Origin: Amoebophrya sp. A120
Taxonomy: Eukaryota > Protista > Dinoflagellata
Direction of reading: 5' to 3'
Assembly: GCA_905178155.1 (NCBI GenBank)
Contig: CAJINV010000016.1
Location: 835,386-899,385 of the forward strand
DNA: 64,000 nucleotides
A model generated the notes under the pieces. That model saw only the letters and a list, made by a program, of their open reading frames with translations, ran no database searches and was not told the origin of the DNA. Positions 17,029 through 62,700 of this stretch are shown in pieces. A program made the position numbers and the translations under genes. The first letter of the stretch is position 1, and the number at the start of each line of letters is the position of its first letter.

Positions 17029-20000
17029 ATGGTGCGGATTCAGATCAAGGGTGGTATCTGGAAGAACTCCGAGGATGAGGTCCTCAAGGCGGCAGTGATG
17101 AAATATGGGCTGAACAACTGGAGTCGAGTCAGTTCCCTGTTGGTCAGAAAAACCGCCAAGCAGTGCAAAGCAAGGTATCTATAGTGTCGTTGATTGAAGA
17201 TGGGATCTGATCTTTGCATGACAAAGCGCTCGAATGCTGCGCGCAACCGCATGACAGATAATGTTGTATGGCAAAACAATAAGAACAATACCCTCGTCCT
17301 TCCGAAAACGAAACCGCAACACAAACTGTCAACTTTCTCAGGTGGTACGAGTGGCTGGACCCGTCCGTGAAAAAAACGGAATGGACCAAAGACGAAGACG
17401 AAAAGCTACTCCACCTGGCAAAATGCTTTCCCTGCCAATGGCGGACGATCGCGCCGGTGGTCGGGCGGACCTCGAACCAATGCCTGGAGCGGTACGAGCG
17501 ATTACTGGACATCGCCCAGAACCGCGAAATGACGGAGGATGACCCGCGAAAGCTCCGGCCCGGCGAAGTCGATCCGCACCCCCACACCAAGCCAGCGAGA
17601 GCGGATGCGCAAGATATGGACGAGGATGAGTTAGAAATGTTGACGGAAGCGCGAGCCAGGCTGGCGAACACGCGGGGTAAAAAGGCGAAGCGGAAAGCGC
17701 GGGAAAAACAGCTGGGGGAAGCGAGTATGCATTCTGCAAAAGTTTTGTCGTACTGGTAGTAGTTGCATGTGCATTACAGGTTTCGACGTCTCTGGGTATG
17801 ATGAAAATGGAGTTTGTCATGCTGGAAAATGAGGTATTGAGTAGAACACGAAGAGATATTAATCTGCCGTGCAGCATTGCAACTAGTACAACGAGTGCGA
17901 CACACCACGACTTTTGCCCAGGATAAGAAGAAGATTGGCGCAACTGCAGAAATCCAGGGAGTTGAAGGCAGCGGGTGTGTCGCAGGAACGGCAGGAGTTT
18001 CTGAAGCGACGCAGAAGGCAGATGGACTACGCACGGGAAATTCCCTTCCTCCAGGAAATCCCGAAGGGGTTCCACGAAACCGGGCCGGAGGAGAACCCGA
18101 TCTCGCAAATCGGAACGGGGAAAGTCGCGTTGCAGCAAATTGAGCAGAAAAGGCGGGATCGGGAAGAGCAGATAAAGCGGGCGGAGGACAACCGGAAACT
18201 GAAGAAGCTGCAGAAGGAAAATCTCGCTGAGCACATGGAAATCGTGAACAAAATGAACGACCCGGCGAGCACAAGGAAACGAGTGGAACTGGATTTGCCC
18301 GCGCCGATGCTGGAGGAGTGGGAGCTACAAGCACTAGCGAAGCACGGGGAAGAGAATTTGAAACTGCAGGGCGCGGCGGGTGGGTTGATTCAGTCCTACG
18401 AAACCCCCATGTTGGGTGGCGGAAACACGCCGGGGCAAACGCCCTTAACCCAGTCGAAACTCGACGTGGTCTTACTAGAAGCGCAGAACGCGGCGAAACG
18501 GAACGAGATGCAGACGCCGCTGGACGGCGAGGACAACCCGCAGTTACACGATTCGGATTTTACAGGGGTGTTGCCGCAGCGCATGCGGAAGAACGACAAA
18601 GCGGGGATGACACCGGGGGGGATGACCCCGTCGATTGGATTCGGATCCAGCACGCCTGGAATGGGCGGGATGACCCCCGGGCAGTCCATGCACGGAGGTT
18701 CGCAAACGCCGGGGATGACGTCGGGGGGAATGACGCCCGGTCACTCGGGGCAGTCCGTATCAGGTATGAGCGGCATGACGCCCGGCGGAATGACGGGCGG
18801 ACGGACACCTGGGATGTACACGCCGCGAGACGGGCTGGGATTGGCGTCCGAAATGGACCCGAGCGAGGCGCAGAATTACCTGCAGGGGCAAATTAGGAAC
18901 GCGTTCGCGAATCTGCCGAAACCCAGCAGCATGCTGGAGGTACTTTCTCAAATAAACTGATACGAAGTTTCATCTCTTACTTTAGTTCAGTTTGGCAAGT
19001 CGTGAATCCAGCACGCATGATAGACAGAAATTAACACTGATGCTTGTCTCTGCATCACAACATTGTTCCATTTCCAACCTTCACTCTTCATCCTAACCCT
19101 AACAGGTCACCATGCCGGCGAACCTAGCCGAAGACGCGGACGACGACGGGGAGCCTGAGATTATCGAAGATGCCGACGCGAAAGCCGCACGACTGCAGAG
19201 AGAGAAAGAAGCGGAGGAGAAGAGGAAACTCCTTCTCGCCTCCCTGGTGGTACAACGAAACCTGTTAAAAGATGAAGCCACGATGCTGGGCAAGCCCAAC
19301 CCCGACACGGTGTACCAACTGCCCATGCCAAAACTCCCGAACACCGTGCAAATCACCTCTTCCTCCAACCTCCCGCTCGCGATAGACGAGGAATTAGCGA
19401 AGCCGGCGAAGAATTTCGTCACTTTTAAGAGGAAGGCCGAGACGAAACTGATAAGGGAAATTCAGGCGCAGGTGATAAGGGATGCCTACGATTTTGGGTC
19501 GGTGGATAAGGCGACTTTGAAAAGACCCGCGGACTTGAATGAGGATTTGCGGCAGGAGGAACTGACCGCGAAAAGGAAAGTTTTGGAGTTGGAAAGGGAA
19601 TTGTTAATCCAAGAATTGGCGGAATTTGACGCGGAAAGCGGCGACACCGTGCGGCCGAGGTACAGCTTATGTCATGCGCGAAAAGAAGCTGTTTTTTTTG
19701 TCACGCGCGATATGCAGGAGGATCAGCCGGTGAGGTGTGAATGATTTACGTTACAGTAGAATTCCTCTTGCTAGATCTGGATTCGACGTCCCCTTTGTCA
19801 TGCAGAAAACCGAATACGTGCATCTATTTTCAAAAAATGAAATTATCCTCAGTTACCCCGAGCACGTGGAGCTTACGGAGCTCTTCGAGGACCGCTACCT
19901 CCCCCAACTGGACTACAACGGTAATTTCGTCGCGTTCACGGAGTCAGATGCCCTCACTCCGGTCGAGAAACTGAACAGCTACCGCTTCCTCTTCGAGCGG

Positions 20001-59700: not shown

Positions 59701-62700
59701 CCCAGACATTTTTACATTTGATAAACCGGGAGTCGGCGCAGATTTCCGACAACGTGTATTTCCCCTACGAGAACACGGAGAACGTCATGGCTTTACCCGA
59801 TGGAACCACCGTCATCCATAACGAGAACGCCGTCGTGACCCAGACCACCGCAAATGTGGATGCCGGAGTCATCCAAATGCGGTTTTCCCGGTATTTGGAA
59901 GATCCAGATTTTTTGGAAAGGGAACTGGATCGATTCGAAAAGCAATTTCCGGCGTGGATGAGTGCGGAGCAGTTAGTTGCGGAAGGGTATGTGCAGAAGA
60001 AGGACAAGTACAAAATTCTGGTCGCGCGGAGACAGCGAAATTTGCTGTTTGACAAAGCCTATGAACTGCAAAAGTATCGCACTCGTATAAATGCATTACA
60101 AATCTCCTCAGCATGAGAAATAAAATTTGTAATGCGTTTTGACCTTAACAACAGGATTTGTAGTGCATGATTGCAATACGAGTGCGATACTTTTGCACAG
60201 GATAAAGCCGAACACGCCTACGCGTTAGCGGATATTCTGCCATTGGGAATCGAGGAACGGACGGACAAGATTCCGTATTGGATTTTTTTCTGCTTTTTTA
60301 GCCCTCCTTGCTGGGCTTTTATTTTCGCATGGGACTTGCTTTGTGTTAGTGTTTGTCGCCTGTGCATAACAGAATGACAGGTTGTGTGGTCTGTGTCTGT
60401 CTAATCCAGCATAAAGAAAGTTTTGTGGTTTAAGTACTTACTCACGTTATCCAGAGTCTTCAACTTAAAAAGAAACCGAACCTATCAGCCTTCTCTCTTG
60501 GTCCGGCCTCGGCGAGTGGTTTTTCGACAAATTTGTGCCTACCGACGGCGACCGAAACCAGCGGATGGGTGGCTCCTTAGACCACATCGCGCTTCGCAAA
60601 CCGAACGAATTACGCCAGTGGTTCAACAAGCGACGGGATGAGGGCACGGCTTTGCACAAACTCGCCGAGGTTTACTACAATTTGCTAAATGACCAGAAGT
60701 GGCAGAACCACATTGAATTTCTCTCCAACAAGAATCCGGAGTGGTCTTTGGGGTTTTTGATTTTTGCGAAGGAATTTGTGAAGAACATCTGGCAAGCCGA
60801 GCCTTTCGCGACGGAGTTGCGCATGTACTACCGGCCATTGCTGATTTCCGGCACGACAGACATGCTGTTTCAAAGGACCAACCCTCGCACCGGCGAACTG
60901 GAATTCATCATGTGCGACTGGAAGCGGATGGCGGTCTATGGATTGCAAATGTGTCTGGGTCTGGAAAGTTCTTGGAACTTGTATTGCTGCTCTTACATTC
61001 CTGTGAAATCTCTATTGCATGACCAACAAAAGTCGCAGCCTCTCTCGTCATACAAAAACGCAGCTTTTCATGCGGACTGCGTATGAGAAAGCGTTCTCCA
61101 TCAAACTTGTCATGCTTTCCCGCATAAGGAAGGGTTCTCTTGATGCGCATTTTAGCATCAGAAATTTCTAGACCCAGACATTTTTGCATTTGATACGGTC
61201 CTGGACAACCGACAGTATTCCCCGACGGAACAAGATTTGTCGCAGGAGCAGCTAGAGCTCGCGGAGGATCACGAGTTCGACCGGATTTCTGCGAAATTTC
61301 TCGAATCCGCCCCTGACTACGTGAAGAACAAGCGCAACAGCCGGCTGTTTTACCGGTTGGAATTGGTGAAGAAGGCCTTTCAACAGCCCTGGATGATGAA
61401 TCGCACGTTTAAATACTCTCTGCAGCTACGGAATGCAGAAGTACTGTACTTGTAGTAATCTTCGCGATCCCTCATCACAAATGTGCTTTTTTAATGCCTG
61501 ACCGTGCATGGCAAATCCAAATGTTACCTTTGCTTCTGAAAAAATTTGTGATGCAATTACTACAAGCGCGGTACTTTTGCCATGCATAACCGCTATTGTT
61601 CTACAAGTGGATGGCGGAATTGGTGTACGATATCGAGATCAAGTACACGTGGATCGTTATCCTGCATAAAAACGTCCCCACCTCCCCGGAGTTGTCATGC
61701 AACTGTGCAATGACAGGAACATCTGTAATGCGCAGCTCCATGAGAGGTATCGTATTTCCAGATCCAGTCGTGTTTTGGAATTTGTAATGCTGTAAACAGG
61801 ATGACAAGATGGCTTTTTCGTGTAGCTTCCGTTGCCAACTAGCACTACACTGCATGAGGCAAGCTTGTCATGCGCAACTCCCAAAACTTGGAGATTTGTC
61901 TAGCAGATTTCCCGACATCGTGAGTATTGGGATGTGGGGACGTTTTTACAAATGATAATCGTTCTGATCAATCCGGTGGAAAAACTCTCCGAGAAAATTA
62001 TGACTTGCTCAAACGTTACAATCTCAAACGTTACAATAGAATCTGGAATTTGTGTTGCATGATTAGCATGACAGACTCGCACAGCGTCCCACCTTTTGCA
62101 ACACAAATTTCGCCACATTCTAGTGAAGATTGAGACTCCGGATCTTATCATGCGCAGTCCTATGAGAGTTGGCTAGATCATGCACTTCTTGCATCACAGA
62201 CTTCCGGATTCTATTGCAACGCTTGAGATTGTAGCACCTGAGCAGGTTATAAAAATGATCTTCCTCGACCGGAGAATCGGGGTCGAAGTGTACCCGGTGG
62301 ACGGGTGGACCGACCATTTACATGCGTATGCAGTGCAAAAGTATCGTACTCGTACTAATTGCAGTTTATGCATTACAAATCTAGTTCTTAAACGTAAATC
62401 CGCATTACAAATTCAAGTCTGTAAGTAATGCTGAGCCAATTTGTATTGCGATTTATACTAGTACGATACAACTTTTGTACAGGATAATGCGCGACTGCAA
62501 GCGATCATCCAAACCCGGCACGAGAGTCTGCTCGCAGCAGGTTACAACTGGGGGAACGTGGTGAAGGATGTTGAGCCACTGTACCCAACCGTGAGTTCCC
62601 TGGACGAGTTGCAGACGGAGAAGTTACCCGCTTTGCCGGTCAGGAAGTCGAAGCCGGTGTATTGGCAACATCTTCAGGCAATGATGTTAGGTGGGACCAC

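Follow-up and report, generated by a model that had tools for sequence, protein, structure and literature searches.

A one-plus-four splice register at introner elements in a window of the Amoebophrya sp. A120 genome

Where the introns begin and end

When an intron is an inserted element flanked by two copies of a short direct repeat, which bases of the two copies does the message keep? The question is raised by a stretch of 64,000 nucleotides (nt) of contig CAJINV010000016.1 (positions 835,386 to 899,385 of the forward strand; hereafter the window), in which an initial annotation, made from the letters alone, had listed 25 elements with inverted-repeat ends inside genes. The host is Amoebophrya sp. 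A120: two proteins held by NCBI under that name, P0122 and P0241, are 100% identical to exons of the window, and both are encoded on a single contig of 1,906,736 base pairs (bp).

Elements of this kind have already been described in strain A120 as introner elements (IEs; Farhat et al. 2021, BMC Biol 19:1, PMC7789003). In the parts of that paper drawn on here and below, they carry inverted repeats 8-20 nt long (TAT, then seven bases of weaker conservation and at least three A) and short direct repeats (3-5 nt) that span the exon/intron junctions, more than 60% of A120 introns are given as non-canonical and without a clear splicing signature, an origin from miniature inverted-repeat transposable elements (MITEs) is proposed, and a hairpin is proposed to draw the exons together. 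The same parts call the IE intron border unknown or variable and the variability of the splice motif unprecedented, without explaining it; the legend of Fig. S23 gives a distance of 1-5 nt between the inverted repeats and the splice sites, RNA editing is considered near 2-4% of borders, and other repeat positions are given for strain A25. A 2024 review (PMC11282704), in the parts drawn on here, still terms the intron boundaries significantly variable. A fixed register for these introns is stated in no paper found by our full-text literature searches.

The intron is 1 nt upstream of the element, the element itself and 4 nt downstream of it, whatever the boundary bases. The distance from the terminal stem is fixed in ten of the 11 informative junctions, not in all of them, and for this known A120 system the 1 + 4 register seems to be a new and simple rule.

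The junctions were read from assembled contigs. Contig sets X1-X4 hold 0.64-0.67 of sampled words and X5 and X6 hold 0.92-0.94; contigs of X1 and X4 were aligned on 43500-63499, and those of X1, X2, X4 and X5 on 24000-43999. Listings of joints are partial, and all figures on joints hold among those listed for these two regions. A joint recorded as both = 0 has a position without ambiguity, and one recorded as both = n is ambiguous. X1, X2 and X4 act as transcript assemblies, in that four ordinary GT..AG introns are skipped in them and long open reading frames (ORFs) are restored on the plus strand. At least 16 element junctions in the transcript contigs lie at non-GT/AG borders, as in the published A120 IEs. 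X5 acts as DNA: it runs unbroken across 24760-31307, 31891-39463 and 39436-43999, and none of its contigs has the joints 24206>24468 and 24526>25067.

We write k for how many bases of the 5-nt repeat in the messenger RNA (mRNA) stem from the upstream copy. Ten junctions with 5-nt repeats are informative (Table 1). Two of them, at elements 43818 and 49305, fix k at exactly 4; the others bracket it, with 4-5 at 36656 and 24812, 3-5 at 61427 and 17726, 1-5 at 46473 and 50877, and 0-4 at 24212 and 2403. A value of 4 alone is compatible with all ten, an outcome that would have a chance of 3.7e-4 if k were random for each intron. Among the perfect-repeat junctions, seven of seven skip exactly the element plus 5 nt.

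The register N-TAT...ATA-NNNN had been proposed in the initial annotation from seven decayed pentamer pairs; all seven are present as written (Table 1), and this register is the sole one that fits the ten junctions. Its seven predicted mRNA pentamers were all recovered, AGGAC, TTTTC, GACCA, CATCG and GCAGC in transcript contigs and CCAAA and GCGAG in the proteins P0241 and P0122, respectively. An upstream origin of bases 1-4 is confirmed by the joints at elements 46473, 50877, 61427, 36656 and 24812, and by EARRL in P0122 (the A25 and Vitrella CDC5L orthologues keep EARRLA). Base 5, previously held to be less firm, comes from the downstream copy: the AGGAC read at 24206>24468 excludes an upstream origin, and the Lys codon of P0241 shows the same. 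At 43813 and 24207 the joined contigs read TTTTC and AGGAC, not the alternative forms TTTTT and AGGAT.

The repeat is nearly lost at three elements, with one of five bases matching at 43818 and at 36656 and two of five at 49305, yet these elements are still spliced. The repeat is therefore dispensable and not a signal, as had been supposed earlier from the first of the three. At the two unambiguous junctions the first and last intron bases are TT..TC (43817 intron) and TT..AA (49304 intron).

It is highly improbable that these joints arise other than by RNA splicing in this register, whether by DNA-level excision, as an assembly artefact, through an aligner convention, or from a 0 + 5 register with editing of base 5. 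An aligner convention cannot give joints with both = 0. Although the elements are repetitive and many spurious joints occur in the DNA run X5, the two joined forms shown for X5 are absent from it, and it crosses the elements; and although the RNA nature of X1-X4 is a guess, ordinary GT..AG introns are skipped in these contigs as well, and long ORFs are restored. Editing, which Farhat et al. (PMC7789003) considered near the small share of borders given above, would need the changes T>C, T>C, G>A and T>G, each of them matching the downstream copy.

The earlier claim of cuts at fixed asymmetric distances from the stem stands at ten junctions, but not on the 3' side of the eleventh, the intron 39328-40694, which lies outside the 25 elements first listed. 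The element in this intron is 1364 nt long, with a terminal inverted repeat (TIR) of about 30 nt, and the joint 39327>40695 falls 2 nt after ATA, or in a 0 + 3 register if shifted by one ambiguous base; on the 5' side the single base before TAT is as the rule requires. As no more than 2-3 nt follow ATA here, the 3' distance is not universal. It may be family-specific, and 39328-40694 may represent another family with a shorter target duplication. The same exception, which keeps A/TATG (the slash marks the cut) and ends 2 nt after ATA, is what would be expected if the machinery fixed only the 5' cut (N/TAY) while the 3' cut were flexible or family-specific and selection kept those insertions whose offsets sum to the duplication length, and the direct repeats of 3-5 nt, with other positions in A25, given by Farhat et al. 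(PMC7789003) would suit that arrangement as well. We nevertheless regard it as quite unlikely, given that two unambiguous and eight bracketing junctions agree on a 3' cut at +4, and that the lost-repeat junctions 43818, 49305 and 36656 still have ATA + 4 even though NNNN shares nothing there.

The elements and their relatives

The 25 listed elements start with TAT in 22 cases and with TAC in three, all end with ATA, and their ends are inverted repeats. Flanking 5-nt repeats are perfect in 18 and have one mismatch in a further four, in agreement with the direct repeats of published IEs. A scan of the window for TIRs gave 35 pairs, and 5-nt repeats flank 16 of these perfectly; the 20 dinucleotide-preserving shuffles that served as the control for chance gave 0-7 pairs and no perfect repeats. 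Minimum free energy (MFE) folds pair the 5' end with the 3' end in 28 of 29 elements, in keeping with the hairpin described for A120 IEs, and the motif published for A120 (TAT, about 7 nt, AAA) occurs in 17 of the 25 elements at the 5' end and in 22 at the 3' end.

Element sizes are 115-592 nt in 28 of 29 cases. TIRs, 5-bp duplications and three families with related internal sequence are the hallmarks of MITEs, and by their copy structure these are MITE-like, putatively non-autonomous and putatively mobile copies of TIR DNA transposons. The families are the 8179-61195 group, with a GTCTGGGTCTGG core, the elements 11593, 24528 and 61658, and the elements 1779, 31163, 60060 and 62327.

Within the families, 14 of the 16 classifiable copies point the same way with respect to the plus-strand genes (8/9, 3/3 and 3/4). 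The two reversed copies, 2663-3195 and 62327-62486, are still spliced, and both have perfect repeats. The first of these, 533 nt long, contains two separate stretches that resemble family members of 250 nt, both reversed, and is possibly a nested or duplicated copy.

TATG stands at the transcript-sense 5' end of 13 of 25 elements and, read as the reverse complement, at the 3' end of five, where TATC is the usual form (18). As a result, the terminal helix often has a G-G mismatch as its fourth pair. The element 5' end resembles a GTATG donor site more than the 3' end does.

In the 1 + 4 register GT starts ten of the 25 introns and AG ends two (11593 and 44251), and none has both; these counts had been given in the initial annotation and were reproduced on our own list of 25. 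The canonical borders of U2-type introns and introners, GT (GY)...AG, are thus found together in none of the 25, and G at intron position +1 is not enriched (10/25, binomial p = 0.11).

Two elements five bases apart, the second of which (24812-25062) has a weak TIR, make up the compound intron 24527-25066. Removal in one step or in two would yield the same mRNA. Contigs 24681-25096 (X1) and 24807-25096 (X2, X4) exist as well and indicate that unspliced or partly spliced RNA is present. Decayed elements had also been proposed at 25970-26076 and 37166-37412 from a scan for ORF restoration; both were rejected, as contigs start inside the first and cross the second. The true junction near the second, as read from contigs, is 36654>37252.

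The window elements and the A120 IEs of PMC7789003, in so far as the parts drawn on describe them, are alike in organism, inverted repeats, TAT motif, direct repeats and lack of conserved terminal dinucleotides; they differ in that the published border is unknown or variable, whereas here there is one register, 1 + 4, with one exception. The introners of Symbiodinium, Polarella, Micromonas and Aureococcus (PMC9860276, in part) are, like those of A120, DNA transposons with target-site duplications and/or TIRs that make introns: the element and one repeat are removed, mRNA length is usually unchanged, and the boundary is set relative to the duplication. Those introners, however, carry or recruit GY...AG, whereas no A120 element has GT with AG and the boundaries are arbitrary repeat bases. 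The MITE-derived introns of Fritillaria borealis, according to the passages that cite them in PMC7789003 and PMC11282704, are also transposon-derived, non-GT/AG and efficiently removed, by an adapted U2 spliceosome, but they keep AG-AC and AG-AT, whereas the A120 elements keep no terminal dinucleotides.

What makes the cuts

We consider it probable that A120 introners are excised at 1 + 4, with the pre-insertion message restored, by the host spliceosome reading N/UAY as G/UAY. Exact removal of the element plus 5 nt would return the message to its state before insertion; a relaxed, U1-less spliceosome would read positions +2 to +4 (UAY) as the 5' signal, with the first base free, and the terminal helix or the ATA end would place the 3' cut. 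The conventional introns seen in the window start with GTAT (4) or GTAC (3), and all seven end with CAG, usually followed by G. With GTAY in seven of seven conventional introns and TAY at the element start, N-TAY would amount to a conventional 5' site whose first base is free. This match, together with the report that most spliceosome proteins and the U2, U4 and U6 small nuclear RNAs (snRNAs) are found in A120 and U1 is not (PMC7789003), favours a relaxed, U1-less spliceosome. The elements, their repeats, the RNA-level junctions, the 1 + 4 register and the dispensability of the repeat are observed; the spliceosome as the cutter, UAY as the 5' signal, and the helix or ATA end as what sets the 3' cut are inferred.

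Several points weigh against this reading. The RNA nature of X1-X4 is a guess, and these runs come from one study with two samples; assembled contigs, not raw reads, are the evidence, and rare isoforms or minor registers would be hidden in them. The annotations of P0122 and P0241 probably rest on related RNA data, all of the evidence comes from plus-strand genes in one window with 11 informative introns, and part of the joints in both alignments was examined. The 3' distance found at 39328-40694 is not the usual one, and element 36656, with a decayed TIR and no terminal stem in its MFE fold, keeps the register all the same. Neither the first nor the last base of the intron is constrained (G at +1 in 10/25, AG at the end in 2/25), and we know of no spliceosome that tolerates free boundary bases to such a degree.

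The same register could also be produced by a spliceosome-independent, structure-guided endonuclease and an RNA ligase, with the 1 and 4 nt measured off from the terminal TAY/RTA helix. We think this unlikely, although the boundary bases vary freely at either end, the two ends pair in 28 of 29 elements, cuts fall at set helix distances in ten of 11 junctions, and U1 was not found in A120 (PMC7789003). Such a route has been proposed for euglenid nonconventional introns, which are described in the parts of PMC11282704 drawn on here as having TIR stems at fixed offsets with duplication-like repeats, and as being released as circles without a lariat in a possibly non-spliceosomal way. Four observations are hard to reconcile with such a nuclease: the 5' cut matches the conventional G/TAY (7/7), which would be a coincidence for an unrelated enzyme; element 36656, for which no terminal stem is predicted, keeps the register; at the exceptional 39328 intron the 3' distance differs in spite of a good, long TIR; and no circle junctions occur among the joints listed.

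The likeness to the euglenid introns extends to TIRs that pair and draw the intron ends together, repeats at the junctions that resemble target-site duplications, non-canonical borders, a set asymmetric stem distance and a suspected MITE origin (PMC11282704, in part). According to the same source, however, the euglenid stem lies at +4 to +6 and -8 to -6 (CAG/CTG), with 3 and 5 unpaired bases, whereas pairing in A120 runs from +2 (TAY) to -5 (ATA), with 1 and 4, so that the A120 elements do not fall within the euglenid pattern. The euglenid introns also leave as circles after conventional splicing, have other termini and belong to another lineage.

It is possible, though on balance doubtful, that the terminal TAY/RTA helix is a sequence-blind ruler, from which machinery with no need for G at +1, a 3' AG or U1, and possibly non-spliceosomal, places its cuts 1 nt ahead of the helix and 4 nt beyond it, and that these offsets co-evolved with the 5-bp stagger of the transposase. 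If that is true, each insertion would take itself out of the message exactly.

With a fixed 1 + 4 register, the splice-motif variability of A120 reduces to a simple rule, in which the splice-site dinucleotides are random bases of the target duplication and the constant signal is the element end, N/TAY...ATA-NNNN/. The rule allows exact gene models in A120 and related genomes, ties the element 5' end to the conventional G/TAY site, and shows that the duplication is unnecessary for recognition. It also poses the question of how both cuts are placed without a conserved boundary base, and it bears on the conversion of transposons to introns and on how far the spliceosome, or a substitute for it, can relax.

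Coordinates, window genes and element RNA

Table 1. Introns of the window, with informative junctions first, then elements with perfect repeats, then conventional introns (slash, cut)
Feature	Position	Strand	Element and added bases	Upstream copy or perfect repeat	Downstream copy	mRNA	Evidence and remarks
Intron, adenylate kinase gene	2402..2521	+	2403-2517	CCAAG (2398-2402)	CCAAA (2518-2522)	CCAAA	P0241 TITPKIAV, Lys = AAA
Intron, CDC5L gene	17725..17929	+	17726-17925	GCGAG (17721-17725)	AGAAG (17926-17930)	GCGAG	annotated protein P0122
Intron	24211..24471	+	T + 24212-24467 + AGGA	AGGAT (24207-24211)	AGGAC (24468-24472)	AGGAC	24206>24468; both = 4; X1, X2, X4
Compound intron, 540 nt	24527..25066	+	G + 24528-24806 + GGGTG + 24812-25062 + TTCG	GGGTG (outer)	TTCGG (outer)		24526>25067, GGGT/G; both = 1; X1, X2, X4
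Intron	36655..37251	+	A + 36656-37247 + AAGA	CCAGA	AAGAA		36654>37252, CCAG/A; adjacent pieces of X1 record 4, X2 record 10; shift by 1 only; in frame
Exception intron, 1367 nt	39328..40694	+	A + TATGTCCCG...CGGGACATA (39329-40692) + TG				39327>40695; adjacent pieces of X1 record 4, X2 record 10; in frame
Intron, EI24-like gene	43817..44079	+	T + 43818-44075 + ACTC	TTTTT (43813-43817)	ACTCC (44076-44080)	TTTTC	43816>44080; both = 0; X1, X4; in X1, X2, X4 the loose end after 43816 continues as 44080; ORF reads EAFRVLL
Intron, MsrA gene	46472..46725	+	46473-46721	GACCA (46468-46472)	TACCA (46722-46726)	GACCA	46468>46723; both = 4; X1, X4
Intron, PAP2-like gene	49304..49618	+	T + 49305-49614 + GCAA	CCACT	GCAAG	CCACG	49303>49619; both = 0; X1, X4; in frame; absent from the initial list
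Intron	50876..51144	+	50877-51140	CATCG (50872-50876)	GATCG (51141-51145)	CATCG	50872>51142; both = 4; X1, X4
Intron	61426..61592	+	61427-61588	GCAGC (61422-61426)	ACCGC (61589-61593)	GCAGC	61424>61592; both = 4; X4
Intron	1778..1934	+	1779-1930	GTAAA			P0241 maps across
Intron	2662..3199	+	2663-3195	TGGAG			533-nt compound element, reversed; P0241 maps across
Predicted intron	8178..8438	+	8179-8434	CCGGA			TIR; removal opens 109 codons each side
Predicted intron	11592..11875	+	11593-11871	CCAGC			ends AG
Predicted intron	23607..23918	+	23608-23914	AGGCG			TIR and repeat
Predicted intron	31162..31332	+	31163-31328	ACCGG			gene nearly without cover in X1, X2; none among joints listed
Predicted intron	31694..31961	+	31695-31957	CGTTC			removal opens 145 codons; none among joints listed
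Intron	44250..44584	+	44251-44580	TCAGC			ends AG; 44245>44581, skips 335; both = 9; X1, X4
Intron	47164..47377	+	47165-47373	CTTCT			47158>47373, skips 214; both = 6
Predicted intron	58353..58620	+	58354-58616	AAGCC			none among the 15 of 24 joints listed
Predicted intron	58685..58941	+	58686-58937	AAACG			none among joints listed
Predicted intron	59471..59727	+	59472-59723	AACCG			removal opens 128 codons
Predicted intron	60059..60208	+	60060-60204	AAGCC			TIR and repeat
Intron	60936..61199	+	60937-61195	CGGTC			60931>61196, skips 264; both = 5; X4
Intron	61657..61961	+	61658-61957	ATCGT			61652>61958, skips 305; both = 6; X4
Intron	61998..62255	+	61999-62251	AAAAT			61993>62252, skips 258; both = 5; X4
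Intron	62326..62490	+	62327-62486	ATGCG			reversed in family; 62321>62487, skips 165; both = 5; X4
Conventional introns (approximate)	17176-17339, 18941-19105, 19660-19850, 34354-34561, 46782-47021, 53595-53799, 54237-54359

The plus strand is the direction of every window gene that can be oriented. The gene names of the initial annotation agree with Pfam: P0122 is a CDC5L/Cef1 homologue with Myb_Cef, P0241 is an adenylate kinase with ADK, and the exon 46022-46471 carries PMSR (MsrA), while EI24 is a weak match at 42989-43816, the exon upstream of the 43817 intron. PAP2 is matched at 49619-50872. A search of the window against Rfam gave nothing at gathering score, snRNA genes included.

At the adenylate kinase junction 2398-2402, A120 has Lys, as in the downstream copy, whereas the relative P0001 has Arg, as in the upstream and now intronic copy. 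The contrast fits a substitution in the exonic copy after insertion. As evidence on the register the Arg of P0001 was set aside, the change being judged conservative.

Two raw RNA runs labelled as the same species, X8 and X9, yielded 3 and 0 reads, respectively, over 43500-63499, and X8-X10 do not cover the strain. In the transcript contigs, summed word depth is very high over element sequence at 58174-60174 and 30670-32003 (up to 695 in X1), and many contigs carry foreign flanks. Together these indicate that the RNA assemblies are rich in element sequence drawn from many loci; such sequence could represent retained introns, stable excised introns or DNA carry-over.

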